A stretch of 64,000 bases of DNA, from positions 1 through 64,000 of IMG/VR virus record IMGVR_UViG_3300033143_004212. One strand, written 5' to 3'. The DNA is from a virus. Under the pieces are notes generated by a model. That model did not search any database, was not told where the DNA came from, and was given only the letters and a program-made list of their open reading frames with translations. Position 1 is the stretch's first letter. Each line of letters opens with the position of its first letter. A program made the position numbers and the translations under genes. Shown one piece after another: positions 613 to 64,000 of the stretch.

Positions 613-930
613 ATGAAATTCAGAGAAGTGATAACTAAAGATGGAGGACATTGGATAGAGTGTAAGAAACATTGGTGGAATAAATGGGAAGAAACATTAG
701 CAGAAGAATTAGAATTTATTAAAGTTAGGAAATGAAGGATGTTTAGAGTGATATTCTTTTCTCTTGGCTTATTTGCCAATATTAAATCCCGTTATGACCG
801 CATGAGCACAGCAGAATTAATATTAATGATAGTAGGATGGATAATAATAATCTTAGTGATAGGACTAATAGGACTAATAGGAATCTCATGTTTAGGAAAG
901 TTTTATGGCTTTCTTATAACAATATTATAG
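613..930 (+). CDS. Hypothetical membrane protein, read through TGA 733 (may be two small genes)
   Basis: GGAGG RBS + ATG 613, in frame with track ORF 739-930; hydrophobic C-terminus. Confidence 0.5.
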
Positions 931-976
931 TATTATTAATGTTAAATAATTCCATTCAAACTGCAGGAGGTGTATT

Positions 977-1126
977 ATGAAAAGAGATGATATATTAATA
1001 GTAATATTATTAATTTTATGAATAATTACATGGTTCGTAGGAATGAGTTTTATAATGGGAAGTTTTTTAAATGCAGTTATAGTGACGGGTATCATAGTAT
1101 TATTAATGTTAAGTATTTACGATTAA
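977..1126 (+). CDS. Small 2-TM membrane protein (49 aa, TGA=Trp at 1019); missed by ORF track
   Basis: GGAGG RBS; MKRDDILIVILLIL[W]IITWFVGMSFIMGSFLNAVIVTGIIVLLMLSIYD; TAA inside the next motif. Confidence 0.75.
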
Positions 1127-1146
1127 ACCGCATAAGAGGAGATAAT

Positions 1147-1467
1147 ATGAATAAAGAAGATTATAAAAATAAATGGCAATACAGTGAAGATGAAAGACCA
1201 AAAGGTTGTTGTTATGATTGTAGAATGAAATATGATCAATTCCCAGATATGATTATACCAGATGTTCTTTGGGAATTAATAAATCCAACTAAGATTGAAG
1301 GTGCAGGATTATTATGCCCAACATGTATTGCGAATAGATTAGATTTTTTAGGTATATGGTATGATTTACAAAATAAATTATGTAAATTACCTTGTAAGAG
1401 AAAACATAAGAAGAGGGATTGGAGAATTAGACCTATTTTAGAAGTAATAGAAATAAAACAATGGTAG
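1147..1467 (+). CDS. Hypothetical protein with CxxC...CxxC (probable Zn-binding)
   Basis: AGAGGAG RBS before ATG 1147; CYDC and CPTC motifs. Confidence 0.75.
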   Translation: MNKEDYKNKWQYSEDERPKGCCYDCRMKYDQFPDMIIPDVLWELINPTKIEGAGLLCPTCIANRLDFLGIWYDLQNKLCKLPCKRKHKKRDWRIRPILEVIEIKQW

Positions 1468-1610
1468 AAGATTCCATTTAAACCGCATTCTTTTCACTCT
1501 TGGCGCATTTAATCTCATCCAGTTTGTTTCCACGAGATAGATTGGGAGACATAATATATATTAAAATCAGTCTGCAATCACAATTGAACCGCATTGAAAG
1601 GAAGTGTCAC

Positions 1611-1736
1611 ATGAAAAAGAAAGAAATAATGTTATCATTATTATCATACTATTTTATCATTTTATCAGGTCTTACAGGATCTGTATGTATGCTTTTTATT
1701 GCTGTTATTTTATTTATTATAATGATAAATTCTTAA
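1611..1736 (+). CDS. Small hydrophobic membrane peptide (41 aa)
   Basis: GAAAGGA RBS after motif copy 1578. Confidence 0.6.
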   Translation: MKKKEIMLSLLSYYFIILSGLTGSVCMLFIAVILFIIMINS

Positions 1737-4022: not shown

Positions 4023-4204
4023 TTTCCTGCTTTTTTGGGAAAAATCTATAGTAAAATACAAGTACAGATATCTTATCAATATCTGTATTTTGCGTGGCAT
4101 CTTGGGGTCGGTGTATTTTCGCAATAAAAAAAGAGAGGAAGATAAGTCCACCGGAGTATTATCTCCTCTGTACCCACCTTATACTCTCTTTAATAATTAT
4201 ATTA

Positions 4205-4447
4205 CTATGCTTCTTCTATTACCTCTGCTTCTGCTTCGTCTTCGATTACTACTTCTAATCTTTTAGTTTTAACGATTACTTTAACAACGATATCTAATTC
4301 TCCATCTCTTACTAAGAACTCTCCACTAGATAAATCTACTAAGATTTCATCTTCTCTAGCTTCAAAACCTTTTGCAAGTCTAGCTTTAACATCCTCACGT
4401 GCTTTTGTTGCGATTTCTTTTTTAGTTAATTCTTTAATAACAGCCAT
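4205..4447 (-). CDS. Small acidic protein (family shared with 6229-6465 and 8728-9000)
   Basis: GGAG RBS; own promoter TTGACT-17-TATAAT at 4536-4508. Confidence 0.8.
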   Translation of the reverse strand: MAVIKELTKKEIATKAREDVKARLAKGFEAREDEILVDLSSGEFLVRDGELDIVVKVIVKTKRLEVVIEDEAEAEVIEEA

Positions 4448-4556
4448 TTTGCACCTCTCCTTTTGTATTTTTTTTATTTTTTATTTTCTTTCCCTTAACT
4501 TACTTATATTATAACATATCTTCTCCCGAAAGTCAATAATAATTCTTAAAAATTTA

Positions 4557-4823
4557 TTAATTTCCGTAGGAAATTCTAATTGATTCTTCACGATGGATAT
4601 AATGGGAACCTTTATCTTCAAGATCTTTTATTTCAATTACTAAATCACTTCTTTCATACATACAGTAGATACCAATTTGTGCCATCCCTGCAACATATAA
4701 GTAATATAGTTTTAAAGCTTCTGCTTCAGTCCTTGCAACAAAAGTGATGATACCTCTTCCATTATAATCTTCATCCTCAGTTCCATATTCTTTAAATAGA
4801 TAACTAATTTTAAATTTTTTCAT
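4557..4823 (-). CDS. Hypothetical protein
   Basis: AAGGAG RBS; promoter TTGACT-17-TATAAT at 4878-4850. Confidence 0.75.
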   Translation of the reverse strand: MKKFKISYLFKEYGTEDEDYNGRGIITFVARTEAEALKLYYLYVAGMAQIGIYCMYERSDLVIEIKDLEDKGSHYIHREESIRISYGN

Positions 4824-5191
4824 TTTTCCCATCTCCTTTATCTATATATATTATATCATATCTTTACGTAAAAGTCAAGGGTTTTTTATAAGTATTTTCC
4901 TGGACATACGCCTTTTATAGCTAGTAAAGTGGTCGGGTAGAATTTCTGGAAGATTATGTAAATGGGGTCGGTGTAGGAGCGGTGTATAAAAATCCTGGTC
5001 GTGATGAGGGTCGGTGTAGGAGGGTCAAGGGGTCGGTGTATTAAGTTTTTATTTTGTATGTCAAGGGGTCGGTGTATTTTAGGGGTCGGTGTATTCCTAT
5101 ACTACGCCGATATCGGTGTACTACACCGCATTATCCGGTGTACCAATGAACAGAAAAAAATAGGAAGTAACTTCCTATTTTTCCTTAATTC

Positions 5192-5509
5192 TTAATTTTC
5201 ATTTAATTCGTCGAATGCGTCTAAAGTTAATTCTGATGTATTTCCAACTTCTACCAATCCTGTTTTTACTAATACTAAACGTTCTGCATTACTAATGTAG
5301 GTAAAAATAACTTTAACGTATTCATTTATTTGGATATAATCAGTACCGTAAATTACTCCATCAATTTCATCAAATTCCATAAGCTTTTTAACAAGGTCTC
5401 TAAATTCATTGGCTTCTTTTAAACTCATTACTCTTGAACCAATAGTTCCAATATTACCCATTTCTGTTACTCCTTCAAGTCTTACTGCTACTAAATCTGT
5501 AATTTTCAT
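5192..5509 (-). CDS. Hypothetical protein (105 aa)
   Basis: RBS; followed by terminator at ~5155-5182. Confidence 0.75.
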   Translation of the reverse strand: MKITDLVAVRLEGVTEMGNIGTIGSRVMSLKEANEFRDLVKKLMEFDEIDGVIYGTDYIQINEYVKVIFTYISNAERLVLVKTGLVEVGNTSELTLDAFDELNEN

Positions 5510-5522
5510 TTACTCCATCTCC

Positions 5523-5747
5523 TTAATAAGTGTAAATACTTTCCAATATTCTTACATGTACATCTGCATATTTCAAACCTTTTATAAAACCATTAATTTG
5601 TTCATCAATTTTATCATGGTAATTATCTCCAGATAAGATAACTTTATCCTTAACTTCGTCTCGCAATTGTACTGTACAATTCTCGTCTACTCCATCATCA
5701 TCTTGTAAATAATATTTTCTTAATATGATTGTTAATCTCATATTCAT
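5523..5747 (-). CDS. Hypothetical protein (74 aa)
   Basis: RBS and box promoter upstream. Confidence 0.75.
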   Translation of the reverse strand: MNMRLTIILRKYYLQDDDGVDENCTVQLRDEVKDKVILSGDNYHDKIDEQINGFIKGLKYADVHVRILESIYTY

Positions 5748-5953
5748 ATGCTCACTTCCTTTCTATATATATAGTATACCATGATATAGAGGTTTTTACA
5801 ACTATACGGTGTATCATACTTTATTTCCGGTGTATGTCCGGTGTACTATTCCCTTATACACCGTTTCTACACCGAATTCGGTGTACTACACCGGGTTTTA
5901 TCCTCTGATACACCGGGAATACACCGCAACTTAGACGTACAAAAAAAAGGAGA

Positions 5954-6184
5954 CTAAGCCCCTTTTTTTGTAATGATATCCATTAACTTCCTTTTCCCAT
6001 CTTCTACCAAAGCTTCTTGATATTTGATTTCGAGATATCCTTTCCAAGATTGGTAAAAAATGTGTCCTTTGGCAATAGCTTGTTGTTTGGTATAATTTGC
6101 CAAATTATCTTCCACCAAAGTTTTTCTTAATCTACCTTTGGTAGAATTTACCAACTGCTCCACTTTTTTATGAAGTTTCGCCAT
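5954..6184 (-). CDS. Hypothetical basic protein
   Basis: GGAGAGG RBS; terminator downstream. Confidence 0.7.
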   Translation of the reverse strand: MAKLHKKVEQLVNSTKGRLRKTLVEDNLANYTKQQAIAKGHIFYQSWKGYLEIKYQEALVEDGKRKLMDIITKKGA

Positions 6185-6228
6185 TATTACCTCTCCTTCC
6201 ATTTAGATGGAGAATAGGGAATAAATCC

Positions 6229-6465
6229 CTATTCGATAAAATCTACTTCTAAGATTCTGTCTTTTTTTTCAACTACTCTGAAAACGAAATCTTTTTTATC
6301 TCCCTTTTCATTTTCAAATTCTAGCACGATTCCTTCTTTGGTAAATTTTACCTCTTGCTCAAATTCTTCTGCAAGTAAGTTTGCAAGCTTTTCAAGTAAT
6401 TCGTCTCTTTTTGTAACTTTTACATTGATTTGCTTAGTTTTTGTATTCTTAACTAGTTTAGCCAT
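6229..6465 (-). CDS. Small protein (family shared with 4205-4447 and 8728-9000)
   Basis: AGGGAG RBS; stop fused to the shared terminator. Confidence 0.8.
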   Translation of the reverse strand: MAKLVKNTKTKQINVKVTKRDELLEKLANLLAEEFEQEVKFTKEGIVLEFENEKGDKKDFVFRVVEKKDRILEVDFIE

Positions 6466-6672
6466 TTATTTCACTCCCTTTATATAGTTTGTTATCTCTT
6501 ATCTATAACTAATTATACCATATATATACCTATTATTCAACTGTCCGGTGTATTTAGGGTGCGGTGTATACTTGAGTGCGGTGTATACTTGAGTGCGGTG
6601 TATAAGTAGAATAAGTGCGGTGTATCGGCAAAGTGTGGGGCATACGCCGACCCTATGCTATAAAAAAAAGAG

Positions 6673-7401
6673 CTAGTAAAGCTCTTTATGAATTTTTGCC
6701 ACTATTCGCCAAGGTTGGTTAATAATTCCTTTTGTGAATTTTTTGTGTTGTCTGTAACATTTTGCCATTATTGCCACTTCTATCTCTGTATCACTTAAAG
6801 CAGTGTGATTCTCAGAAAATTCCATATCTCCTGTAATATACCTATATCCAACTTCTGCATTTGTTAGTGGATTACATCCTTTAGTGTAAAGACCTAACTG
6901 ATTTACCATAAGATGGAAGCCTTTCTGAATATAGAGAGTTTCACAAGCTAATCCCCATATATCCTGTAATTTTACAGAAAATCTTAAAAACTTTTTACTT
7001 TCCTTAGAGCCGAATTGAGAATGTAAATATCTGGTAGTTGCTTTTAATGCTCGAATATCAAAACTGAGATTATATGCCAAAACTTCCTTTACATTCCATT
7101 TCTCTAATAAATCGTTAAATTCTTTTTTAGCTACTTTAAAAGGTACTTTACGCATTAAACGATTGGTAATTTTTTCCACATACATTGGTCGCTTACTTCC
7201 ATAATATGCCGAATTCATCATTTTTTTATTGTCAAAAATTTCCTTTATTACCCAATCTTTCTGTGCATAAATTTTACCTCGTTTGTCAGTAATTGTCACT
7301 CCTAAATCATATACCAAAGGGCTATCAAAGCAGCCTGCCGTCTCGGTGTCAAAAACTGCCAAATATTTCACTCTTTTATCATATTTTCCTTTTTTTGTCA
7401 T
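6673..7401 (-). CDS. DEDDh 3'-5' exonuclease
   Basis: Motifs FDTETAG, AYNLSFD, HTALSD. Confidence 0.85.
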   Translation of the reverse strand: MTKKGKYDKRVKYLAVFDTETAGCFDSPLVYDLGVTITDKRGKIYAQKDWVIKEIFDNKKMMNSAYYGSKRPMYVEKITNRLMRKVPFKVAKKEFNDLLEKWNVKEVLAYNLSFDIRALKATTRYLHSQFGSKESKKFLRFSVKLQDIWGLACETLYIQKGFHLMVNQLGLYTKGCNPLTNAEVGYRYITGDMEFSENHTALSDTEIEVAIMAKCYRQHKKFTKGIINQPWRIVAKIHKELY

Positions 7402-7638
7402 TATACCACTTCCTTCCAAATTCGTTTCGCTTGGCGTTCTCTATCTATAACTAATTATAGCATAGATAAGTGAATACTTCAAGTGTCCGGTGTATCTTGC
7501 TTGCGGTGTACTTCCGGTGTATTTCCGGTGTATTTTTAAAGAAAAAAATACATACACCGATTATACACCGAATTCGGTGTACTACACCGTAAGTTGCGGT
7601 GTACTGGTAAAATAAAAAAAATAGGGAATTAATCCCTA

Positions 7639-7974
7639 TTAACATGTAGTATTGTAAACAGTTAAAGTTACATCATAATCATTTTCTTCTAATAATTGGA
7701 ATTTCATAATGTGTAAATGCGTTCTTAATTCAAGTACAGATTCTTTAAAATCATTAGCAGATATAAAGTGCATTGGTTCGTCTGTTCCATCGTCAACAGT
7801 TATTATAAATAATAAATCCATTCCTGAAATGCTTTCCCATGTAAAAGTAACGGTAATAATATTTCTAGGGTCATCTATTGAAACACCATAAAAGCGACCA
7901 CCATCAATTTCACTATTTAAAATTTTATCTAAAATATCGTAATAAGTAATTTCTGGTAATTTTAAACTTAACAT
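7639..7974 (-). CDS. Hypothetical protein (111 aa)
   Basis: AAGGGAG RBS; terminator follows. Confidence 0.7.
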   Translation of the reverse strand: MLSLKLPEITYYDILDKILNSEIDGGRFYGVSIDDPRNIITVTFTWESISGMDLLFIITVDDGTDEPMHFISANDFKESVLELRTHLHIMKFQLLEENDYDVTLTVYNTTC

Positions 7975-7978
7975 ACAA

Positions 7979-8470
7979 TTACTCCCTTTCTTTATCTGCT
8001 AATACTTTTGCCATTCTAAAAGCATTTCTAGTTGCTTTTTTTTCTAGTTTAGTCGTATAGTAAAAATAATCCATAAAATCATTAGTAGCATGACAATCTT
8101 CTAAAAAATCCATTTCTTCTTTTTTTAATTCTAAATTGTAATTAAATTCTTCGGGATTATCTAAATAGTCTAACCAATGACCTAATTCATGTAATAGTAC
8201 AAATTCTGCGTAAGATAAATCTTTATTAATTTTTTGTAAAGTATCATATTCTATCCTATTCGTATAAGCGTCTATTGGAAGTTCTTGGAAATCTATTAAT
8301 TCTTCCATACTCATAGATACTCTTTTCCCTTCAATCCAAATACCACAACAGAAACCTTGTGAGAGATAAAGGTCGCCGAAAATTTCGGGATAATCTTTTT
8401 GCATTTTATAAAATAATTCTCGTACTTTAAACATATCTTCTTTTTTTACTATATAATTAGATTCAGTCAT
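7979..8470 (-). CDS. HEXXH zinc metallopeptidase-like protein (ImmA/IrrE-like); paralog of 11378-11860
   Basis: FVLLHELGHWLD ... LEKKA motif. Confidence 0.75.
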   Translation of the reverse strand: MTESNYIVKKEDMFKVRELFYKMQKDYPEIFGDLYLSQGFCCGIWIEGKRVSMSMEELIDFQELPIDAYTNRIEYDTLQKINKDLSYAEFVLLHELGHWLDYLDNPEEFNYNLELKKEEMDFLEDCHATNDFMDYFYYTTKLEKKATRNAFRMAKVLADKERE

Positions 8471-8727
8471 TCCATACACTCCCTTCCTTGTTTTATCCTA
8501 TAACTAATTATACCATATATATTATAATAAAGCAACCCATCGGTGTATTTCCGCCTTCAATCACGTATACACCGCACTTTTATTTTCTCTTGGTACACCG
8601 CAAATACACCGCACTTTTTGTACACCGGACTTTCTGTACACCGCACCATTGTAAAATTACTTGATTAGTGTTATACTATAAGTAGATAAAGAAGTGATAA
8701 TAAACTATAAAAAAGGAAGTGGAGAAA

Positions 8728-9000
8728 ATGACAGTTAAAGAGAAAAGTCAAAAGCAATTAGATAATGAATTAAGAGAAAGCATTAAAATTAGATTGGCAG
8801 AAGGTTTTGAAAATACTGATGAAGAAATGGTAATTGATAATGGTTCTTCATTAATTATTAGAGTTAATGATATTAATGTAGATGTTGAAGTAAAAATTAT
8901 TGTTAAGAAAAATCAATTTGATATTGAAATTGCAGAAGAAGAACCGGAAGAAGAACCGGAAGAAACAACAGAAGAACCGGAAGAAGAACCGGAAGAATAG
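8728..9000 (+). CDS. Small acidic protein with EEPEEE tail; inverted cassette
   Basis: Box promoter on + strand, RBS, shared terminator; similar to 4205-4447. Confidence 0.8.
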   Translation: MTVKEKSQKQLDNELRESIKIRLAEGFENTDEEMVIDNGSSLIIRVNDINVDVEVKIIVKKNQFDIEIAEEEPEEEPEETTEEPEEEPEE

Positions 9001-9020
9001 GGATTTATTCCCTTTCTTCT

Positions 9021-9222
9021 CTTAATTGGGATTTATTGGAAGATAAGTATTTGCTTTCGTAGTGTAATGAAGAATCGGACTAAATAGGTGGAGTTGCGAT
9101 ATCAAAAGGTACACACTAGCTTAACCAAAGTAGCCACCAGTCAAGGGAATCTTTAGGAGGTGCACACTCCTACTGTCTACCGAGCCAAAAGGATACTTAT
9201 CTCCCAGTAAATCCCAATTAAG
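9021..9222 (+). ncRNA. Candidate structured RNA enclosed by a 30-bp inverted repeat
   Basis: 9021-9050 pairs with 9193-9222 (28/30); internal stems GACT/AGTC, GGTGG/CCACC, TAGGAG/CTCCTA; no ORF. Confidence 0.55.
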
Positions 9223-9362
9223 GGATTTTTTTCTTTATGGAATCGTACACCGCATTATCCGGTGTATTTCCTGGTCGCGGTCGGCGTACTACACCGAATT
9301 CGGTGTATTTGCGGTGTAAAGTCGGTGTACTTGTAGGTAAAAAAAAGGAAGGATTTTCCTTT

Positions 9363-10133
9363 TTAGTCAATCCTTTCTATAATCATTTCTACATGCGTAT
9401 CTTCTTTTAAATCAATTCCAAAATCTTCCTCAATAGTATTTTTTATGAATTTAGGAAGATAAAGATTTAAATAAGTAATTTTGTAATTATCTGGTATTTT
9501 TGCAATTAATTCCTGTACTGTAATTGGTAAATAATTTTCTTTTACTTCTCTTTCCCAATTATTAATATATCTGTATTTTAATAAGTAATGAAGAAGATTT
9601 TTATTTGAAGTAATACTTCCCCAATTTTTCTCAAAATCTACAAGATTATCATTTTCTGCCATTTTTACTCTTCTTACAAGTTCTGGATTACTTAGTTTTT
9701 CTTGGGAGCTAACTATCATCATATCACGAATGACGATATATTTTGTATTAATTTTTTCAAATACTTCTTCCCAAAAATTAGAAGGATTGGAATAAGAATA
9801 AATTTCATGTATAATTGATGATAAGACTAAAACACTATTTTCTGTTTTTTCTTTTATGAATGAATCTAAATTATCAGTAAATATAATATCTTGATTATCT
9901 TTTTTTGCTTTTTCTAACATTTCTTGACAAATATCATACCCTATATATTTATAGTTTGGATATGAGAAATACATAGACTGTATAAATTTCAATAAAGTAC
10001 CATCTGCACAGCCATAGTCAAGAAAACTATCTGCATTTATTTTCCCTAAAAAGAACGCTTTTTCATATAATGATTTTTTCATAGCTTCAGTATATTCGTT
10101 TATATCTTTTATTTTATTATCTGTAATTTTCAT
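9363..10133 (-). CDS. Class I SAM-dependent methyltransferase
   Basis: LDYGCADG motif I, IGYDI motif II, LSSIIHE. Confidence 0.8.
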   Translation of the reverse strand: MKITDNKIKDINEYTEAMKKSLYEKAFFLGKINADSFLDYGCADGTLLKFIQSMYFSYPNYKYIGYDICQEMLEKAKKDNQDIIFTDNLDSFIKEKTENSVLVLSSIIHEIYSYSNPSNFWEEVFEKINTKYIVIRDMMIVSSQEKLSNPELVRRVKMAENDNLVDFEKNWGSITSNKNLLHYLLKYRYINNWEREVKENYLPITVQELIAKIPDNYKITYLNLYLPKFIKNTIEEDFGIDLKEDTHVEMIIERID

Positions 10134-10153
10134 AATATATCCTTTCATTGTAA

Positions 10154-10297
10154 TTATTTTACTTCTTCATAATCTTCTCCTGATACCCATTGCATATCTT
10201 TATTAGGAATACGTACTAAATACATTAAATAGAAACCATCAGCGTCAATGTAAATAACTGTAAATTCTTCTTTAGTCTTTTTATTTCTTACTTTCAT
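10154..10297 (-). CDS. Hypothetical protein (47 aa); below ORF-track cut-off
   Basis: AGGAG RBS just downstream of box promoter; MKVRNKKTKEEF...QWVSGEDYEEVK. Confidence 0.7.
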   Translation of the reverse strand: MKVRNKKTKEEFTVIYIDADGFYLMYLVRIPNKDMQWVSGEDYEEVK

Positions 10298-10480
10298 AGT
10301 ATATTCTCCTATCTATAATTAATTATATCATACTATAAAGAAAAATACAATCTTCCGGTGTATAAGACTTCCGGTGTATACTCGGTGTATAAAATATACG
10401 GTGTACTACACCGAATTCGGTGTATGTCCGGTGTAGAATCGGTGTATTGACAGTATAAAAAAATAGGGAATAAATCCCTA

Positions 10481-10945
10481 TTAAGCAACTTCTAGTAATT
10501 CTCTTAGAGTTTCTAAAATATGTTTTTCGTCTTTAGCAACTCCACCATAATTTTCCCATTTTTGTCTAATTTCTTCATTATCATCAAATAATAAACAATC
10601 TTGTAAATTTTTAGTAACATGTTGTTTTGGTGCTCCATACTGAACGCAATGAATTTCTTTTACCATTGGAAAATATTTACTTAACCAAGTTTTTTTATCT
10701 GCTCTGCATTGTGCTTTATATTCATCACTGGCAAACATTGGTAACCATGTAATAACCATAATTTCATATCCTTTAGCTTCCAATTGTTCACATAAACTGT
10801 TTAATTCTACCATATCTACCATTGGTTCAAGTTCATTGAAAATTGATTCAGCACTTCTTAATCTTTCTAGCCACCCATTAAAACCATATAAATTAGCAAC
10901 ATTTCCGTCCATATCAAATGCGATTCTTTTAATTTCTTTAGTCAT
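10481..10945 (-). CDS. HAD-superfamily hydrolase (5'(3')-deoxyribonucleotidase-like)
   Basis: FDMDG motif I, IT motif II, K, LFDDN motif IV. Confidence 0.8.
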   Translation of the reverse strand: MTKEIKRIAFDMDGNVANLYGFNGWLERLRSAESIFNELEPMVDMVELNSLCEQLEAKGYEIMVITWLPMFASDEYKAQCRADKKTWLSKYFPMVKEIHCVQYGAPKQHVTKNLQDCLLFDDNEEIRQKWENYGGVAKDEKHILETLRELLEVA

Positions 10946-10958
10946 TTTTTCCATCTCC

Positions 10959-11186
10959 TTACCATATAATTTGTATTGCATATCTATTATCACTTAATCT
11001 TATAATTGATTCAATCCATCTAATTAATTGTTTATATGTTAAATTTCTATAATGACAATTTTTTTTAGTCCTTCCGTTCCAATAGTAAATAGCATGATTA
11101 TTTTTTGCTCTATTCTCAAAACTAAAACATTTTGCCACTTCTAGCCAATCGTCTTTTCTAGTATAATCTACTCCAAATCTACGCAT
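10959..11186 (-). CDS. Hypothetical protein (75 aa)
   Basis: AAGGGAG RBS, box promoter. Confidence 0.7.
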   Translation of the reverse strand: MRRFGVDYTRKDDWLEVAKCFSFENRAKNNHAIYYWNGRTKKNCHYRNLTYKQLIRWIESIIRLSDNRYAIQIIW

Positions 11187-11377
11187 TGTTTATCGCTCCC
11201 TTTCTATATATATAGTATACCATATTAGATGTAAGTATTCAAGTATCCGGTGTATTATTTATTAAGTCCGGTGTATCTCCGGTGTACAGCTTATCATCGG
11301 CGTACTACACCGAATTCGGTGTATTTGCGGTGTACTTCCGGTGTATTAACAAACAAAAAAAAATAGGAAATTATTTC

Positions 11378-11860
11378 CTATTTTTCATCTGCTAATACTT
11401 TTGCCATTTTATAGGCATTTAAAGTTGCTCTTCTTTCTAATTTGCTAACAGTATAAAGATAGTTAATTAAATCTTCATGAATACAATGGTTTGTTAAAAA
11501 TCTCGAAATTTCTACTTTTTGTTCTGCGTTATATTCAAACTCTTCTGGATTATCTATATAATCTAACCAATGACCTAATTCATGTAATAATACAAATTCT
11601 GCAAAACATAAATCTTTATTAAATTTTTGGTATTCTTTATACCAAGGCATATATATATAATCATATGGAGGATTTAATATCTCATTTAATTCACTTAAGC
11701 TCATATATATTCTTTTAAGTTTAACATCTATGCAACAACGGCAACTTCTCTGAATTGTGAGGTCTCCGAAAATTTTAGGGTAAACATCTTGCATTTTATG
11801 AAATAAATCTATTGCTTTTCTTACGTCTCCTTTTTTTACCAATTCATCAGAATTTCTCAT
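11378..11860 (-). CDS. HEXXH metallopeptidase-like protein; paralog of 7979-8470
   Basis: AEFVLLHELGHWLDY identical to the paralog. Confidence 0.75.
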   Translation of the reverse strand: MRNSDELVKKGDVRKAIDLFHKMQDVYPKIFGDLTIQRSCRCCIDVKLKRIYMSLSELNEILNPPYDYIYMPWYKEYQKFNKDLCFAEFVLLHELGHWLDYIDNPEEFEYNAEQKVEISRFLTNHCIHEDLINYLYTVSKLERRATLNAYKMAKVLADEK

Positions 11861-12003
11861 TTTATTCTCCCTTTCTTGTTTTATCCTATAACTAATTATA
11901 CCATACATATTGGATTATTGCAATATTCCGGTGTATTTATTACAAGTACACCGTAAGTTCCGGTGTATTCTTAGTTTAAAAAAATAGGGAATGATTCCCT
12001 ATT

Positions 12004-12276
12004 TTAATCTTGTATTTCAGTTAAGTATCCTTGTTCTTTATATATTTTAAATAATGTTTCATTACTAAGAAATACCATTAAAAGAAAACCAATTAAATTT
12101 AATACAGGGAAAAGAAAAACTATCATAGATTTTATTTCTGCAAAAAGTTTTTGGGAAATACTTGCATTAGTATAAAATTCATATCCTATTTTCTTAATCT
12201 GTGTATTAAAATCTGCTAATCTAAAGAATGTGTATAATCTGAAACAAACACATATAATTACATATACTCTTAACAT
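12004..12276 (-). CDS. Membrane protein (2 TM)
   Basis: Hydrophobic segments, FPVLNL; GGAGG RBS. Confidence 0.7.
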   Translation of the reverse strand: MLRVYVIICVCFRLYTFFRLADFNTQIKKIGYEFYTNASISQKLFAEIKSMIVFLFPVLNLIGFLLMVFLSNETLFKIYKEQGYLTEIQD

Positions 12277-12482
12277 GATATATTACCTCCAAATATTTTA
12301 TTGTATTTTTCTTTTGTAATAAAAAGAATATTCTCATTTTCATAATCTTGATTGTCAAGAATTTCCAATACTTCTTCTTCTGTAACAACTAACCAACTAT
12401 ACATAACTATCATATCTACATATCTAACAGAAATCATTGTAACCAACATTTGCCTATATTCCATTACTCTTAAAGTTGACAT
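12270..12482 (-). CDS. Hypothetical protein
   Basis: AGGAGG RBS. Confidence 0.65.
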   Translation of the reverse strand: MSTLRVMEYRQMLVTMISVRYVDMIVMYSWLVVTEEEVLEILDNQDYENENILFITKEKYNKIFGGNISC

Positions 12483-12492
12483 AATTTACCTC

Positions 12493-12816
12493 CTACTTAA
12501 ACAAATTAGTATGTTTTACCAATACTATCGAATTGTAATATAATTTTTGGTCACAAGCTGAATATCTAAGAATTAAAGATATTGGAGCATGTTCAAAATT
12601 ATAAGGTAATAAATAAAATTTACAACTGTTTTGAGAAAAACAAACTAAAAATTTATGCCAACTATATTTATCATTCTCTTCAAATTTTACAATATCTCCC
12701 ACAAAAATTGGTTCTCTAGTTTGCTCACATTGTAAGCCAAAAAATACATCTTCCATAATTTTACTATGTTGTATAACTTTCTTAGTCAATTCAAATTCAA
12801 AATTTTCTGTTCTCAT
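12493..12816 (-). CDS. YopX-like protein
   Basis: GL...REPIFVGDIVK resembles the YopX EIYEGDIV motif. Confidence 0.55.
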   Translation of the reverse strand: MRTENFEFELTKKVIQHSKIMEDVFFGLQCEQTREPIFVGDIVKFEENDKYSWHKFLVCFSQNSCKFYLLPYNFEHAPISLILRYSACDQKLYYNSIVLVKHTNLFK

Positions 12817-12950
12817 TTCACACCCTTCCTTTCTATATAATAATTATACCATGATATAGAGGTAAATACAAGTGTCCGGTGTATTCGTCTTTAAATAATA
12901 CTAATACACCGCACGATTGAATAATACTTATATATATGTTATAATTAATT

Positions 12951-13048
12951 ATAGATAAGAGATAGATAACAACAGATAAAATCTGTGAAACACATAAATA
13001 TACCCTTTCTTAGTGGAGGTGGACTGTCGGTGGTCTGCCTTTACTTTC
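12951..13048 (+). ncRNA. Candidate ~100-nt small RNA from a box promoter
   Basis: Complete box promoter at 12905-12945, no ORF downstream, G-U-rich 14-bp hairpin at ~13012-13045. Confidence 0.5.
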
Positions 13049-13154
13049 GTATATATTATACACCGCTTTTTCCGGTGTACTACACCGAATTCGGTGTATT
13101 CCCGGTGTAAGGTCGGTGTACTTATGCTTAAAAAAAACTACCAATAAATGGTAG

Positions 13155-13583
13155 TTAAAATTGTTCTGGTAAATCATCCCAAGCTTTATTAGCTTGTTTT
13201 TCTCTTTCTTTATCTTTTGTTTCCAATAATATCCATTCTGTTCTTCTTCTTGCATGTTTTTCTAAAGCTGTAAATTTTTCTTTTTCTGTTAAATTATTAA
13301 ATCTATTCATATATTCTTCTTGACGACATCCAAATCCTAGGTCTCCTGTAAGTATTGAGTAACATGATGCAGTATAAATTGTTTCTTTATATGCTTCATT
13401 ATATATAAATTTTATATTCATATCAATCAAATATCTACATTTTCCTTTTTTATATGATATTAATCTAATATTTGCTTTTTCAATCCATTTTTTTTCAGAT
13501 ATTTTTATATAAATACAAAAACTAAATGCAGATATAATAATCATTGCAATAAATATATATCCTACTAATTCATTAAAAGCCAT
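13155..13583 (-). CDS. Membrane-anchored hypothetical protein
   Basis: N-terminal TM helix; RBS. Confidence 0.7.
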   Translation of the reverse strand: MAFNELVGYIFIAMIIISAFSFCIYIKISEKKWIEKANIRLISYKKGKCRYLIDMNIKFIYNEAYKETIYTASCYSILTGDLGFGCRQEEYMNRFNNLTEKEKFTALEKHARRRTEWILLETKDKEREKQANKAWDDLPEQF

Positions 13584-13598
13584 TTTGTACCTTCCTTT

Positions 13599-13781: not shown

Positions 13782-13921
13782 AATATCTCCTTTCTATAGT
13801 TATATTATATCATATCACCAATAGAAAAGCAATGCTTCGGTGTATTAATTAGGCTTCGACCGCATTTTCCGGTGTATTCAATCTTTGCTTTTGGCATAAA
13901 AAAATAGGGAATAAATCCCTA

Positions 13922-15891: not shown

Positions 15892-15957
15892 AAAATACCT
15901 TCCTTTCAAATTTTTGGTAATTGTCGATGATTAGAGTAAAAGGGAATAAATCCCTTT

Positions 15958-24525: not shown

Positions 24526-24535
24526 GGAGGTAAAT

Positions 24536-50561: not shown

Positions 50562-51392
50562 TTATTCTTTTTTTAGAATGCCGTATAGATCAGATAGTAA
50601 AATACTTATTTCATTTGCTATTGCTAAGGAATCATTTATTTTTTTATCTTGTTTTTTAATTGTTTCTTCGTATTTTTTGATTTTTTTATCTTTTATATCT
50701 TCTTCATCATTTTCAAATAATGGCATATAATCAATTCCGAAGTATTTACAAATTCCAACTGCGTGCGCTAAAGCAATTTTTTCTCGGTAACCATCATCTA
50801 ATAATTTTTTTGCATCTTCTTTATTAGTCATAAATCCGCTTTCAGTAAGTATTGCAGGTGCATCTGTATTTTTTATTACATAAAATCTTGCATTCTTAAC
50901 TTTTCTATCAACCATTCCAGTCGCATCTATTAATTCTTTGTGAACTGTTTTTGCTAATCTAGGTCCTATTCTACTACCAGTAGAGTAATAAGTTTCAATT
51001 CCTGTAACAGTATTCCATCCACCCATTCCATAAGCATTCGCATGTATTGAAATAAAGATGTCTACTTTTGCATCGTTAGCAATTTTGACTCTAGATTTAA
51101 GAGGTAGATCTATACCTTCTTTATAAGTTCTTACTACTTTAAAACCTCGTTTTATTAATTTACGTTCTAATTTCTTTGCGACCGCGAGATTAAATTCATA
51201 TTCGTGCATGAATTTACCATTTTCCCATCTAGGCGTGCGTTTTCCCCGAGTTAATGGACCGTGACCTACATCTATTCCTACTGTAATATCTTTTGATGTT
51301 TCTAATATGATTCTTTGTGTTCGTACTGCGATATACTTTCTCATATTTATTGCAGTAGTATTTTTTATTCCTATTATAATATTTCTTTTCAT
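50562..51392 (-). CDS. N-acetylmuramoyl-L-alanine amidase (Amidase_3), endolysin-like
   Basis: IDVGHG, E, SIHAN, LTESGFMTN; own TTGACA-17-TATAAT promoter at 51449-51421. Confidence 0.9.
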   Translation of the reverse strand: MKRNIIIGIKNTTAINMRKYIAVRTQRIILETSKDITVGIDVGHGPLTRGKRTPRWENGKFMHEYEFNLAVAKKLERKLIKRGFKVVRTYKEGIDLPLKSRVKIANDAKVDIFISIHANAYGMGGWNTVTGIETYYSTGSRIGPRLAKTVHKELIDATGMVDRKVKNARFYVIKNTDAPAILTESGFMTNKEDAKKLLDDGYREKIALAHAVGICKYFGIDYMPLFENDEEDIKDKKIKKYEETIKKQDKKINDSLAIANEISILLSDLYGILKKE

Positions 51393-51583
51393 TTCTATCC
51401 TCCTTATCCTATATATAATAATTATAACATATTTTCTCCTATTTGTCAAACCTCTTGGATAAAAGTTTTATAAGACTAAAAATAGATTACGATTTGGGCA
51501 GAATTATTTAATTACTTTTAATTACTTTAAATATTATTAGACATAAAGAGGTTATTTATGAATAGAGTAGAAAGGATGGTAAT

Positions 51584-52555: not shown

Positions 52556-53242
52556 ATGTCAGATATTAAATTAATAATATTAGATATTGGTTACAAAGAA
52601 GATGCCTTTGGATTAAAAAAAGGAACTAAAGTATGAACTAAAGAATTCAAATTCAATAGTAAAGTTGCAAAACTTATAAAGAAAATTTTAGAATTAAATG
52701 GAGTAAAAGTAATTTTAACGCAACCATTAAACACATCTAAGATTTCTTTAAATGAAAGAATTATTTTAGAAAAAGAATTAAATCCAAAAGCAGACGGATT
52801 AGTTTCCATGCAAGCTGATTGGAATTCAGAAGAAGCTACTGAAGGTAGTTGGATTTTTTATTGGCACACTTCTCAAGAAAGTGGGAAATTAGCCGCTCTT
52901 ATAGATAGAGCATTAGTTGATTGTTCGAACAATGAGCACCGAGATATAACGGCATCTATGCCAGACTCTTGGAACGATTTCCAAATTTTAAGAGAAACAA
53001 ATTGTCCTTCTGTATTAATTGAGTATGGTTATATCGATAATAAAGATAGAATGAGAATATTTAGAAATAGATATTTTGCTTTAGATTGTGCGAAATCAAC
53101 TTCTGAGGGGATTTTACAATTTTTAGGAATAAAGAATTATACTTTAAAAACAAAAGGAAAAAGAATTATAAAAGTAATCAAAGGTTTAATAAAACTTTTG
53201 AATAAAATATTAAACAAAATAGAAAAAGGAGGAAACAAATGA
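52556..53242 (+). CDS. Amidase_3 homolog lacking two Zn-binding His (TGA=Trp at 52634)
   Basis: ILDIGY for DxGH, SMQAD for SIHAN; LRET..PSVLIEYGY retained. Confidence 0.75.
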
Positions 53243-53598
53243 ATCTAGCTATTGTTTTTGCTTTTTTAATGGTTATAGCTATTGTAGCTTATTTACGATA
53301 TTTATCACCTTATTTAAGAGTTAAAGGATTAGACTACTACAGTGAAGTTAGATTAGCTTTAATGCTTACTGGCTATGTTTTTAGAGAGAAAAAGGTAAAA
53401 GATATTGCAAGAGTAGCTTTATTAGTAGTAACAGAATTAGAGGAACTATCAATATCCCCTGAAGAGAAACATGTAGAGGGCGTTGAAAGACTAAGTATTA
53501 AATTATTAGAAGAATTCAACTTAGAATTAGAAGAAGGTGCATTAGATCTATTGATACAAGTAGCAGTAGCAATGCTACCAAAAACTAACATAGAATAA
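53239..53598 (+). CDS. Putative holin (LL-H-like)
   Basis: N-terminal TM; K...A...V..LE...EEK pattern; lysis context. Confidence 0.55.
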   Translation: MNLAIVFAFLMVIAIVAYLRYLSPYLRVKGLDYYSEVRLALMLTGYVFREKKVKDIARVALLVVTELEELSISPEEKHVEGVERLSIKLLEEFNLELEEGALDLLIQVAVAMLPKTNIE

Positions 53599-57075: not shown

Positions 57076-57801
57076 CTAATCTCAGTCTAAATATGTTTTT
57101 TCATTTATTTTACTTGATCCGTATTTCCCAATACAGATTGCTTCGGCTTCATCATCTGTAACTTTTATTCCAAATTCTTTAAGTACGTATTGTTGGGCAC
57201 TTCTTTTTAATTGCTGTCTATTTTGTCCTTTAATACCGCAGAATTTACGTCATTCAGAACTATAAACAGATTCATAAGAAATATCTAATGAATGTGCTAC
57301 CAATTTACATACTCCTAAAACCATTGAAAGAGTTTTAAACAATCCCACATTATGCTCTAGTTGTATATCTTCAAAATATATTATATCCGCATTTCTTTCT
57401 TCAATAAAATTTTTTAATCATTTACTTATCATGTGTAATCTGTGTATTACATTTTTACTGCCTGCAAAATCCACTACTCCATAATCTGTTAAACTACCTG
57501 CCTCTCAAACAGAATATCCAATAAGTCTAGAAGATTGGTCAAAAGCCAATACTGTTTTAGCATTTTTTGGTTTTTCTATAATACCTCCAGTTGTTTTAAT
57601 CTTCTCTCTTCGAGTATCTTGAACAGAAGAAATTTCTTTAACGGTAATTCTACCATTCCTATTAAATTGTTCTCGATACCTTTTAATAGTTTGTAATGAA
57701 GCTCCCATTTTTTCTGCTATCTCTTGATCGAATAAAAAGTCTTTAAATAATGATTCCATCTTTTCTAAATTCTCCATAGTTGGATTAAATCGTTCTTTCA
57801 T
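57076..57801 (-). CDS. ruvC: HTH + RuvC-like Holliday junction resolvase; four TGA=Trp (57505, 57418, 57250, 57082)
   Basis: LAFDQSS..IGYSV, FEDIQ, SE[W]RK, DDEAEAICIG. Confidence 0.85.
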
Positions 57802-59704: not shown

Positions 59705-59808
59705 ACAATTCTCTCCTTTATTCTCATATTTTCCTTATATATATATTATAACATTTTTTTTTCAAAAAGTCAAGTAATTCAGTTAAAAAAGAGAGAATTT
59801 ATCTCTCT

Positions 59809-62139
59809 TTATTTTATTGGACATGCACCAGTATCACACGAACTACCAATGATTTCAAAATCTTCTCCTGTTTCGTATTTTGCGATTAGATGAGGTTTAA
59901 AATCTGACATTTCTTTTTTCATCTTTAAGTATGTTTCTTCATCTATTTCCTCGTAAGGTAATAATTCGAATGCATTATCATCTAATGATAAGAACGAAAT
60001 TGCTACAATGTCATCCCAATTGTTTCATACCCATTGTTCTACTTCTTCCCATTCATGATTTCTAACATGAACAGTAATTGAAGCATTATGATCTACATAA
60101 TGTGTCATGAACATTTTGTATACTTCTAATTGTTCAATCGCGCTAACATCCATTTTTGTTTTTCCTTTTGGTGCTTTAACCGGAAATTCAACTACGTATG
60201 TTTTAACATTTGGTTCTGATTGTCCTACTTCTGGAACCATATTCCAACCTAAATCTCTTACAACTTTAGCCATTGGATCATTAGCACTAATTCTAACTCT
60301 TCTAATATAGTAAGGAGAATGTGCAAAATGTAACCCACTTGATACTGTAGGTAATTGTGATAATGTACCTTCTGGTTTTACAGTTGTTGCTAATATAGGT
60401 TCATTTCCTCCCATTACTTGTGCTATATCTTTTGCAGTCTTTTTAACTATTTTTTTCATATGAGCGAGTAATATCGCTTGTTTATCTTTATTTAATCCTG
60501 ATAAATTAACCATGTCTTGATATCCTGTCATAGATACACCAATTAATCTATCTCGTTTATTAACGCTATTCCATCTTGGAAGTTCCATTTCTATATTCGT
60601 CATTCTATATGCTGCTCTAGTTAATAATTCTAATGCACGGTCCATTCCTTTTCGATCTATGCTACCATCTTCATTAACAAACATTCTGATAACAAGAGTA
60701 ACTAAATTACACATTCCTTTATTATCTAATAGTATTTCAGCGCACGGATTGAGTCCTACAAAATTATCTCTTCGTTTTTTAGCAGCTTCTTCATTTGAGA
60801 GTCCTGGTTCTCCTGTATATCTCATTTGTTGTATGTGCCAATGTAGCTGTTCTCTTTTAGGCTTATTTTTATAAATGATTGTATTGTTACTCATTTGTCT
60901 ATGGATGATTTCTTTATCAACTATCCATTGACCATCAATTTGTTTATATATATTGTTTTTAGCAGTCAATATATCTTGGTCATCATAATCAAATAGAATC
61001 ATTTCGCTAGTTCTTCTAACTCCACCACTTACTACATTTTCTCCTATAATATTTGCTATATCCATGAGTTCATAAGTTTCTAAATATCTAATTGGATCAA
61101 TTCCATTTTTTAGAACTTTATCTATTTTTTCATACATATTCGTCAATGCAGTATGACCGCTTGCGTATCCACCGAAAGTTTTTAATCTTTCTCCTTTTGG
61201 TCGGACACTATCATAATCGAATATAATTGTTTCAACAACTTTAAAATCATTTGCTGTTAAAATTTCAAAAAAGTATCTAATACTTCTTGCTCAACCTTTT
61301 TTACTATCTCCAACTATAATTTTAACTACTGTATTATCATTATTAAATTTTAAAGTAGTATGTTCATCACGCTCGCTTCTAATTTTTTTTGGATTATAAT
61401 TTTTATTAATAATCTCAACATCTGTTCTGATTAAAGGTAGCATATCTTTTTGTTCTTTTGTAATCTTTAATCCCATTCCTGAACCAAGCATTAACAAATA
61501 AAATAATTCATAAAAACATTCATAATCATTAACACTATCAAAAGCACAATTAAAATTACTTTGTGGACTAATTTCCGCAACTGGAGTTCCACCTATCCAG
61601 AATGTACGTCCTGATAAGAAACCTTTTAAATTATATATTAAATCGAATAATTCTTCTGCTTCACGCTTGCTACAATTACCAAGTGAACAATTATAATCTA
61701 CCGCTCTCGCTACAGTTTCCCACCAACGTTCTCTTCTTTTCTCTCCTGGTAAATATCTAGAATATGTTCTGTAATAAACAAAGCTACCTATTTGATGCTC
61801 AAATGGGTCTGGTAAATGTTTATATTTACTTATAAAATCTTCACTTAAAAATTGATATATTCTTTTAATTCTATTTTTCTTTTCATTCTTATAATTAATG
61901 TAATCACTAGCAACTTCAAAAAAACCTTGCTCCATTAAAGAAATTTGTACAAATTTTTGAATTTCTTCGACGTGTACTTCATCTTTTGTAATCTTATCTA
62001 TAATTCCTGCTGAAATTAATTTAATTTCACTTAATTTTAGCAACGTATCAGATTCTTTAGCCGCACTTTTAATATTTCTTTCTATGACAGAAATATCGAA
62101 AGGGACTTTTTTACCATTTCTTTTTATAACTATTGCCAT
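59809..62139 (-). CDS. nrdJ: Class II (AdoCbl-dependent) ribonucleotide reductase with ATP cone; TGA=Trp at 61291 and 60025
   Basis: VIKRNG ATP cone, RTYSR, NFNC, GDSKKG[W], NPCAE, TVKPEGT, C-terminal C..GACP. Confidence 0.92.
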
Positions 62140-62149
62140 ATGTTCTCTC

Positions 62150-62611
62150 CTAATCGATTGCTTTAAAGAATTCTATTTCTTCTCCATCTGCTAGCCCTTC
62201 CTTTAATGCTACTAAAGTTTCTTCTAAATTCTCTATCTCATAGATTTCATCTGGTTCACTTTCTATAGAGAATGCAAATTTAACATCTTCATTTCTAACA
62301 ATAAAAAGCATCATTTCATATACATCTATTTCTTTCCAACCGCATATTTTTAAATCGAATCTATCATACAAGATATCTTGTAATCCTATGCCTTCAAGAT
62401 AATTATTATAATTATATGGTTCTTCTGCGAATCCTAAATTTCCTGTTGGTTCCATAACTACTAAGTCTATAACTTTACCATTCATATTATAAGATGTTTG
62501 AATTTCATTTCCATTTAAAGTTATTTCTAAAACTTTACTTTTATTTTCCAAATTATTTAAATATTCAATTAATTCTAAGAGATTAAATCTTTTATCTTCA
62601 TACAATACCAT
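62150..62611 (-). CDS. Hypothetical acidic protein
   Basis: AAGGAGG RBS. Confidence 0.7.
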   Translation of the reverse strand: MVLYEDKRFNLLELIEYLNNLENKSKVLEITLNGNEIQTSYNMNGKVIDLVVMEPTGNLGFAEEPYNYNNYLEGIGLQDILYDRFDLKICGWKEIDVYEMMLFIVRNEDVKFAFSIESEPDEIYEIENLEETLVALKEGLADGEEIEFFKAID

Positions 62612-62696
62612 TTGTATACCTCCTTTTATTATATACTATATTTTGTGCCCTTAAATAATTATAGCATATTTTTGAATAAAGCGGAATATGAGGAGT

Positions 62697-64000
62697 CTAT
62701 GACTCCCCATTATTTCTTTCCCAAATGAGAGAAATGCTTCCATCTTCATGTATATCTGTAATTTTATAAATAGTATGACGACCACTATTTTTATAAGTTT
62801 TAGCAACGAATTGGGTCTCTCTTCTAAAACCAGTAATTAATAATTTGTTTCCACGCTTAAACCAAGAACGTTCAACAATTTTCTTTTTGTTTGAACCAGG
62901 TATTCTTTCTGATATTTGTTTATCGAAAGCAGCGAATTGGTCTCTATACATTTTTACTACTGCAATTCCGTTAGTAGTTAATATAGTTACAGTATGTCTT
63001 TGTTTATCTTTATCTAATACTGTACCTGCTATAGTATCTAATTTATATATAGGTCTATCAATTCCTTTTATTCTATAATATCTGACAATTGTTGGTTCTG
63101 TAGGTAAGTTATTGAACTCTATAACACCATATGATTCATTATCCATACCAATTAATTCATGTTCATGATGGTAGTAGCAAATAGATTCCATTTCCCAATG
63201 AGAGATTGTTCCACTTGCATATTTTTCTCATAGCTCATTGAATAAAGAATTATTATAATCTATTAACATTTGATTATGATTTTTTTTAATGAATGCTTTG
63301 ATTGGAGCCATTATAGGTTGATATACTTTATCCCATAGTTTCTTTGAGACGTATAGCGCTCCTTCTATCTCTTCTACGAATGCTTCGGGGAATTCAAAAA
63401 TATTATAGTATCCTTCTTTAATAGTATCATCAAATAAGTAATACTCAACTTTATTTTCTCCTATTAAATATTTATTTCCTCTTCTTCTTAAATATTTATT
63501 AAATTTAAAAACTCTTTTTTCCTTAGCAAATTCATCTGGAATAAATCCACCATCTATTAATGCATTCGCATTTTGCATAGTTAACTTTAATTTTGGTGCG
63601 CTTGCATATCGTAAATAATCTTCTAGAATCTCTTCTCTAGGTTTTTGTTCTAGTTCATCAAATGATCCACCTTTAATTAGTGAAATGATTTGTGTTTTAT
63701 TAACTTTTACTTTGTCATAAAAATCTCACATAGATTCATAAGGTCTATTTTCAATAATTTCAGCAACTAAATCTTGACCAATTCCATTCATACTTTTTAA
63801 TCCAAATAAAATAGAATCAGTTTCTGCATCAGGACTAAAATCGAAATTGGCTCTATTAATGTCAGGATAAACAAGCACAATACCATTCTCTTTCATTTTA
63901 CTGATCGCGGAAGCAATAGCACCATAATCTGTAGGTTTAGGTTTTAAAGCTTCAGAATCTTCTAAAGAACCGGCATTAACAGATAAGCAAGCAGTATTCC
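62697..64000 (-). CDS. dnaE: DNA polymerase III alpha subunit, C-terminal part (5' end outside window); TGA=Trp at 63726, 63228
   Basis: NTACL, PDIN, ILFGLK...GIG, NRPY, LIKGGSFD, C-terminal OB fold IAGTVLDK...KRGNKL.ITG. Confidence 0.9.

Follow-up and report, generated by a model that had tools for sequence, protein, structure and literature searches.

The window analysed here comprises bases 1 to 64,000 of the 83,404-bp viral contig IMGVR_UViG_3300033143_004212, which has a GC content of 30%. The contig is linear, without end repeats, and has a CheckV completeness of 56%; the full genome is estimated at ~150 kb. It carries the genes of a large tailed phage, including those for a portal, a tape measure protein, distal tail (Dit) and Tal-like proteins, a sigma factor and two Amidase_3 proteins, together with a RuvC-like resolvase, a class II ribonucleotide reductase (RNR), DnaE, RNase HI, and ligase and ClpP-like genes. 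The source is a large siphovirus-type phage of Gram-positive-type bacteria, and about half of its genome is in hand. Under the standard code (table 11) the larger genes are broken by in-frame TGA codons, and about one third of them are split. These codons are the subject of the present analysis. Judged from the comparisons described below, TGA is shown to be a sense codon for tryptophan in this phage.

A greedy, non-overlapping set of open reading frames (ORFs) called with code 4 on the whole contig comprises 120 genes at 94% coding and contains 63 in-frame TGA versus 233 TGG codons. Forty-eight of these TGAs lie inside the window. About 12 of the 48 are ORF-calling artefacts, located upstream of ortholog-supported starts, in dubious short ORFs, or at position 38325. 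Once these are removed, ~36 credible sites are left, close to the ~37 counted by the initial annotation, whose range runs from the first TGA (733) to the last (63728); the six motifs that it quoted were each found where it had placed them. Where a code-11 ORF of 80 or more amino acids terminates at TGA, its frame continues beyond that codon for a median of 40.5 codons, and in 10 of 22 cases for at least 50, versus a median of 9-12 codons after TAA or TAG (Mann-Whitney p = 0.002). The in-frame TGAs are real and above chance, and the effect is specific to TGA. Single PHROG or Pfam matches span TGAs in the sigma factor, the phrog_3314 protein, the N-terminal part of the terminase, the phrog_3313 protein, RNR, Amidase_3, RNase H and a NUMOD-like protein. 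The union coding density is 0.76 with code 11, 0.87 with TGA as sense and 0.84 with TAG as sense. As coding density alone discriminates weakly, homology was used instead.

Relatives were searched for with the portal protein as query. The relative used throughout is an IMG/VR contig of 127,832 bp, 84% complete, whose portal is 67% identical to that of the present phage. It is syntenic with our contig from 3.7 to 83.1 kb and shares 73 orthologous pairs with it, at 33-81% identity. It corresponds to contig JRFF01000053.1 in the metagenome-assembled genome (MAG) 'Candidatus Izimaplasma bacterium HR2', obtained from a marine methane-seep enrichment. Seventeen TGA positions are common to this independently assembled relative, which excludes sequencing error. 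Both the relative and homologues retain the TGAs near the C-termini of RuvC and of two homing endonucleases, along with the tails encoded behind them. The RuvC C-terminus has the pattern ...YL[DN]-TGA-D and the GIY-YIG/NUMOD endonuclease ...GY[RK]-TGA-[EK]YID, inside the Pfam domain. The earlier statement that TGA terminates no credible gene stands, to the extent that these data allow a test, with one ambiguous case: TGA 53240 of the second amidase overlaps the ATG of the next gene, and a TAG follows two codons on.

TGA was masked as X in every comparison, so that the alignments are not biased towards Trp. In RNase HI, three TGAs align with W85, W90 and W104 of the Escherichia coli enzyme and a fourth with a Trp of the Chlorobium enzyme (3h08). 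TGA 61291 of RNR aligns with a Trp of the Lactobacillus leichmannii enzyme (1l1l), and TGA 60025 with an Arg there. Among 119 homologues of the sigma factor, Trp is the commonest residue in three of the five TGA columns (47%, 60% and 83%, for a background of 1.2%); of the other two columns, one is Tyr and one is variable. For RuvC, close relatives have Trp in all four TGA columns; at columns 184 and 240 Trp is present in 5 of 5 homologues, down to 32% identity. Homologue columns at TGA sites are enriched for Trp, as seen for RNase HI and the sigma factor. At 40 aligned sites the TGAs of this phage are paired with TGA (17), TGG (13) or other codons (10) of the relative; conversely, the TGAs of the relative are paired with TGG (33), TGA (17) or other codons (7) of this phage. 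Such substitution between TGA and TGG is the pattern of a Trp codon. Code 25 is ruled out, since none of the TGAs is paired with GGN in the relative; Gly occurs at one of the 13 positions aligned to solved structures (Thermus Pol III). The reading of TGA as Trp put forward by the initial annotation is thus borne out both by the columns of these four proteins and by the codons of the relative.

Two of the arguments originally given for this reading fared differently. Several TGAs had been placed at family-conserved Trp positions. For RuvC and DnaE this does not extend to solved structures, in which the RuvC TGA positions align to Val, Ser and Val, and the DnaE positions to Phe and Gly. It applies only among close relatives: the RuvC Trp residues are conserved within the phage subfamily, and the relative has TGG at DnaE codons 840 and 1136. 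TGA 34414 had also been proposed as an internal control, aligned with a TGG-encoded Trp in a paralogous segment of the tape measure gene. Masked BLAST instead matches it to ATT at 36339, 7 codons before the TGG, and the control fails.

Table 1. Genes and regions considered in the window and just beyond it, with their TGA content.
Feature	Position	Strand	Homology	TGA content and remarks
Early-looking small-gene region	4200..17700	-		29 ORFs; 37 TGG; effectively no TGA as sense or stop
Phage sigma factor, head of structural operon	18474..19487	+	phrog_5767, E 1.4e-50, residues 19-336	5 TGA, 3 TGG
NUMOD4/HNH_3 homing endonuclease	19503..20030	+	Pfam	TGA 20004 = codon 168/175
Conserved phage protein	20090..21190	+	phrog_3314, E 5.6e-50	3 TGA
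Large terminase candidate	21165..22976	+	phrog_15503, residues 24-240	TGA 21612, 21621; 603-aa single ORF
Portal	23050..24525	+	phrog_2739, E 3.5e-87	2 Trp, no TGA
Head-module protein	24518..25978	+	phrog_3313, residues 17-464, across TGA 24920	TGA kept in relative
phrog_4088 protein (family function unknown), presumed capsid protein	26625-27623		phrog_4088	no TGA
Small head/tail-joining region protein	28855..29151	+		2 TGA, both TGA in relative at 70% identity
Tape measure protein	35226..40953	+	PHROG tape-measure matches	two ORFs
Distal tail protein (Dit-like)	40983..41813	+	DUF6558, SPP1_Dit	2 TGA
Tail-associated protein, prophage-tail endopeptidase-like domain	41832..44666	+	PF06605, PF24049 below gathering score	TGA 44505
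1352-aa fibre	46464..50522	+		18 TGG, no TGA
Amidase_3 endolysin	50562..51449	-	PF01520, E 3.5e-44	no TGA
Second Amidase_3 protein	52556..53248	+	PF01520, E 6.5e-24, residues 7-187	TGA 52634 in domain
HTH + RuvC-like resolvase	57076..57801	-	weak RuvC matches	4/4 Trp = TGA
Class II (B12-dependent) ribonucleotide reductase	59809..62139	-	Pfam	2 TGA, both TGG in relative
DNA polymerase III alpha (DnaE), C-terminal part	62697..64000 (gene to 66635, outside window)	-	PDB matches	
RNase HI	66678-67172 (just outside window)			6 TGA + 1 TGG

The fate of individual TGAs in the relative varies from gene to gene. Three of those in the sigma factor gene are common to both phages, TGA making up 5 of 8 Trp codons here and 3 of 8 in the relative, and the three sites of the phrog_3314 protein are TGA, TGG and TGA there. 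All four TGAs of the RuvC-like resolvase are kept, so that every Trp of this protein is encoded by TGA in both phages. The relative has 4 TGA and 1 TGG in its Dit-like gene, and TGG and GAA at the positions of DnaE TGAs 63228 and 63726. The relative's homologue of the HNH endonuclease also has a TGA 8 codons before its end, in the same 'N-x-T-TGA' context; BLAST pairs TGA 20004 with TCT, and the match to the relative's TGA is therefore by motif only. In the terminase candidate, the phrog_15503 match crosses both TGAs, and a match to the phrog_5909 terminase family is weak. The large terminase of the relative (32,714-35,347) is apparently interrupted by an HNH endonuclease gene, with its N- and C-terminal parts in separate ORFs. 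In the present phage the HNH gene, at 19503-20030, lies upstream of an uninterrupted terminase. The tail-associated protein at 41832..44666 is 72% identical to that of the relative, and the endolysin is 36-43% identical to endolysins of Lysinibacillus, Bacillus, Geobacillus and Flavonifractor phages.

At an A5 run (38314-38318) the frame of the tape measure gene shifts by 1 nt, and the single 1947-aa ORF of the relative aligns to both halves. TGA 38325 is consequently out of frame and TGA 40621 in frame. A 1-nt change at the A5 run would join the halves into a protein of ~1,900 amino acids; either a homopolymer assembly error or programmed frameshifting may account for the break.

TGA is the minority Trp codon, as previously observed, with a share of 0.20 here and 0.33 in the relative, whereas the A-ending share in the Lys, Glu, Gln, Leu and Arg purine pairs is 0.86-0.92. 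Mycoplasma phage phiMFV1, which has a true code-4 host and a similar GC content, also reads TGA as Trp; unlike the present phage it uses TGA for 0.87 of its Trp codons, matching its AT bias. The unevenness of TGA use among genes noted earlier is likewise supported (permutation p < 0.0002), and use is over-dispersed in both phages. In RNase HI, for example, TGA makes up 6 of 7 Trp codons here and 2 of 7 in the relative. The base after a sense TGA is T in 8% of cases, versus 21% after TGG (p = 0.0003). In the hierarchy established in E. coli, T at +4 provides the strongest termination context for release factor 2 (RF2), and the deficit of T would fit avoidance of that context.

The low share of TGA had been taken as a sign of recent or regulated recoding. 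The comparison does not support a recent origin: 17 of the 40 aligned TGA sites are TGA in the relative too and synonymous sites are near-saturated, so that the recoding is older than the split of the two phages. The proteins of the relative are 50-80% identical to those of this phage, and co-occurrence of the minor codon at conserved residues is only 1.6-4.2 times expectation in every purine-ending pair, Trp included. TGA stands at 0.18-0.30 despite near-saturated synonymous sites in the two phages. Its persistently low level points to a lasting selective cost, plausibly from competition with RF2, and not to a young reassignment.

Absence of TGA from the portal, the major capsid protein (taken here as the phrog_4088 protein) and the 1352-aa fibre was correctly reported. 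The portal and the phrog_4088 protein have just 1-2 Trp each. For the fibre, the lack of TGA among 18 Trp codons gives a binomial p of 0.014. The local GC content is 0.32-0.33, and similarity to the relative amounts to 36% identity over 379 amino acids only. Given this higher GC and the partial homology, recent module exchange may be an equally good explanation for the fibre. Depletion of TGA relative to the rest of the contig is also found in the small-gene region at 4.2-17.7 kb (Fisher p = 0.0002-0.009), where the six TGAs called either precede starts backed by orthologues or belong to a doubtful ORF of 66 amino acids. The layout of this region suggests that its genes are early. Within it, the overlapping ORFs 13922-14254 and 14233-14856 (- strand) both match one 210-aa protein of the relative, and the gene at 13922-14856 may be split or frameshifted here. 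In the early-like region of the relative (12-27.5 kb), several small genes have a TGA in their last few codons, in one case directly before TAA; TGA might still be a stop in the early genes of that phage.

No suppressor tRNA had been seen in the window, in agreement with ARAGORN and with Rfam at gathering score, which find no tRNA there; neither program finds any on the rest of the 83-kb contig. The relative has 24 tRNAs at 102,153-115,175, including a 74-nt tRNA(UCA), and no tRNA-Trp(CCA). Homology between the two phages ends at position 102,117 of the relative, ~35 nt before its first tRNA, and our contig ends 300 nt later. Since the contig is 56% complete and its syntenic relative has a tRNA(UCA) past the end of homology, absence of the suppressor is probably, and most simply, due to the missing ~44% of the genome. 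In a contig that represents about half of a genome it should not be taken as biology. The last homologous stretch, at 82,721-83,108 of the contig (outside the window), comprises 388 bp with 81% nucleotide identity to the relative and lies directly upstream of the position of the relative's tRNA array. Being equally conserved in both reading directions, it may be non-coding, and a search of it with Rfam gave nothing credible.

The tRNA(UCA) of the relative has A1-U72 and G73, which we take to be the bacterial tRNA-Trp identity set, and the same features are present in the tRNA-Trp(CCA) of the associated MAG. It lacks a long variable arm and fits the general model for tRNAs, not that for tRNA-Sec. 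Its minimum free energy fold is not a cloverleaf. An exact search of viral contigs with its anticodon arm returned the relative alone. A 128-kb phage contig with 24 tRNAs within a public MAG inflates the tRNA set of that genome and can mislead genetic-code calls.

The host is most likely a standard-code bacterium with a cell wall. A standard-code host is the better reading in view of the amidases, the TGA fraction, the TGA-free early region, the avoidance of T at +4 and the RF2-bearing MAG. Two Amidase_3 (N-acetylmuramoyl-L-alanine amidase) genes are kept in both phages. The Izimaplasma HR2 MAG encodes release factor 1 (RF1), RF2 and tRNA-Trp(CCA), and RF2 is above cut-off in 138 of 158 genomes of its order. 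This MAG has no penicillin-binding protein transpeptidase, and its sole two amidase genes are those on the phage contig, which implies a wall-less organism. The contig of the relative is either mis-binned, its GC content being similar to that of the MAG, or derived from a host in which amidases would have no evident role. TGA would be a stop in any of these hosts. The order of the MAG shows no enrichment of portal homologues (1 of 157 other genomes, versus 4 of 400 in a class-level sample), and Cas1 is absent from both Izemoplasmatales MAGs, leaving no spacer link to the host. The second of these MAGs carries, on a 2.2-kb contig, a distant portal homologue that is 23% identical and has two in-frame TGAs. 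It is a possibility that the TGA-recoded branch infects wall-less, RF2-bearing Izemoplasmatales of marine sediments; the conserved amidases would then be a puzzle.

We favour a model, to which we assign a probability of about 0.7, in which a phage-encoded suppressor on a standard-code host allows TGA to be read as Trp in middle and late genes. RF2 of the host would terminate translation at TGA upon infection. The small early genes would lack TGA and hence be translated correctly under either code. The phage would then express its tRNA set, including a tRNA(UCA) that would act as opal suppressor once the host tryptophanyl-tRNA synthetase (TrpRS) has loaded it with Trp, and full translation of TGA-containing genes would be possible only after the suppressor has been expressed. 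TGA specifies Trp in genes for the sigma factor, packaging, tail, lysis, recombination, replication and nucleotide metabolism. As the suppressor would compete with RF2, TGA would be costly and remain a minority Trp codon, not employed for the small number of Trp residues in the most abundant virion proteins, with T avoided directly after it.

Several observations weigh against this model. The weakest tRNA of the relative's array is the tRNA(UCA): it scores 36.6 bits, its acceptor stem contains two U-U mismatches and its anticodon stem has 3 bp. Its isotype as Trp is supported neither by similarity (best Asp and Gln, ~0.7) nor by folding. The 83-kb contig contains no suppressor tRNA, release factor or TrpRS, and searches of the relative with the RF-1 and TrpRS families found no release factor or TrpRS there. 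A tRNA array in the present phage would be an extrapolation, as homology stops just before that of the relative. Replication genes carry TGA too, without a clean split between early and late genes. G is enriched after sense TGA, which the E. coli data underlying the RF2-avoidance reading do not predict. Finally, the binning of the relative in a wall-less MAG conflicts with the amidase argument unless the contig was mis-binned.

Other explanations were considered. The host could itself use code 4, as a Mycoplasmatales-like bacterium without RF2, and the phage simply follow it. The lack of a suppressor on our contig and the binning of the relative with a Tenericutes-type MAG would suit such a host; the relative's array, moreover, resembles a minimal U34-type set, and its tRNA(UCA) could then be the normal tRNA for Trp. 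This explanation is nevertheless highly improbable, as RF2 is encoded by the MAG and most genomes of its order, the MAG has a tRNA-Trp(CCA), and the TGA fraction of 0.20-0.33 is far from the 0.87 of a true code-4 phage. It would also leave the TGA-free early region and the avoidance of T after TGA to be explained, and the two conserved peptidoglycan amidases speak against a wall-less host. The present phage differs from phages of code-4 hosts in both its amidases and its TGA-free early region. Alternatively, TGA might be read as Trp without a phage suppressor, either because host tRNA-Trp(CCA) reads UGA after a phage-induced modification or because RF2 is inactivated or sequestered. In this respect, a 70-aa basic protein encoded outside the window, at 81,401-81,613 (- strand), ends in Y-N-R-K-G-K-H (...KSKRDYNRKGKHKK), resembling the RF2-recruiting tail of ArfA. 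Its gene adjoins YkuK-type RNase H-like and metallophosphoesterase genes. Annotations as ArfA/BrfA-like or Pth2 found no Pfam or NCBIfam support, leaving the ArfA/BrfA assignment without a hidden Markov model match. Suppressors have been detected in just 35% of code-4 phage genomes (bioRxiv 10.1101/2021.08.26.457843), in keeping with their absence from this contig. We regard a route of this kind as unlikely, because the syntenic relative has a tRNA(UCA), the contig is incomplete, and leaky read-through could not make the products of genes with 4-6 TGAs.

Two further explanations carry almost no weight. Sequencing or assembly errors, or decaying pseudogenes, would have a precedent in the one real frame break of the contig, at the A5 run of the tape measure gene. 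They are hardly conceivable for TGAs whose positions recur in the independently assembled relative, which are strongly enriched for Trp, which affect essential genes, and from which TAA and TAG behave differently. A reading of TGA as glycine (code 25), selenocysteine or cysteine could appeal to the 'SeC' label given by ARAGORN to the relative's tRNA(UCA) and to two TGAs that pair with TGT in the relative. We consider it practically negligible, since that tRNA, at 74 nt and without a long variable arm, does not fit the tRNA-Sec model, pairing is with TGG (13 and 33 sites) and never with GGN, and the homologue columns are Trp or Tyr.

The portal is 25-32% identical to the portals of Enterococcus Schiekvirus-like, Lactococcus 949-like, Bacillus, Brevibacillus and Clostridioides phages and of the TAG-recoded gut phage phAss-1, and the phage belongs to a group with the Schiekvirus-like phages and the TAG-recoded Phassvirus. 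A megablast search of INPHARED phages with 12 kb of sequence gave no match. Forty-three viral contigs have related portals, and 32 loci are long enough for the code to be judged. About 30 of these 32, including members of 130-144 kb, gain coding density only with TAG as sense. Three judged loci (L002, L030 and L058) look standard, and TGA is recoded only in the present contig and its relative. These two constitute a TGA-recoded side branch in a mostly TAG-recoding lineage, which indicates that stop-codon reassignment arose more than once in one phage group. The phage resembles Phassvirus (phAss-1, PMC10607447) and ~30 IMG/VR relatives in size, GC content, tRNA arrays and the recoding of virion and DNA-processing genes, with portals that are 29-35% identical (33-35% for IMG/VR loci L020-L057). 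It differs from them in the codon concerned, as they recode TAG (to Gln in phAss-1, PMC10607447) and this phage TGA.

Phages that read TGA as Trp in standard-code gut Firmicutes and Bacteroidetes with the help of suppressor tRNAs are known, and published phage clades mix codes 11, 15 and 4 (bioRxiv 10.1101/2021.08.26.457843). Among them, the 'Agate' phages of Firmicutes have genomes of ~127-154 kb, suppressor tRNAs, and homing endonucleases and tail proteins rich in TGA (bioRxiv 10.1101/2021.08.26.457843). The present phage is like Agate in its large virulent-type genome (~150 kb estimated here; 128 kb at 84% completeness for the relative), in its in-frame TGAs in structural, tail and lysis genes and homing endonucleases, and in not using TGA to end genes. 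The suppressor tRNA(UCA), here in the relative, and a lineage with codes 11, 15 and 4 are also shared features. The likeness is one of size, code and gene-class pattern only. Unlike the cited Agate representatives, whose replication genes use the standard code, DnaE, RNR, RNase H and RuvC are recoded here, and the sole relative of named source was obtained from a MAG of a marine methane-seep enrichment and not from the gut. Alternative codes have been reported for cold-seep viruses.

For annotation of this contig we advise table 4, as code 11 splits the terminase, sigma factor, tail proteins, RNR, DnaE, RuvC and RNase H. TGA-recoded phages have been described since 2014-2022, and the present phage is a well-documented new example, not a new phenomenon. 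It provides quantitative evidence that sense TGA is costly over long evolution, with a use of 20-33% where ~90% would be expected and avoidance of T at +4. Recoding might in addition act as a timing lock on the phage's own regulators, beyond lysis genes, a tentative suggestion that we find rather doubtful. It is based on the sigma factor that heads the late operon, with its five TGAs of which three are conserved, and on the RuvC-type resolvase, all of whose Trp codons are TGA in both phages. If true, late transcription and DNA maturation would be licensed only once suppressor tRNA accumulates.

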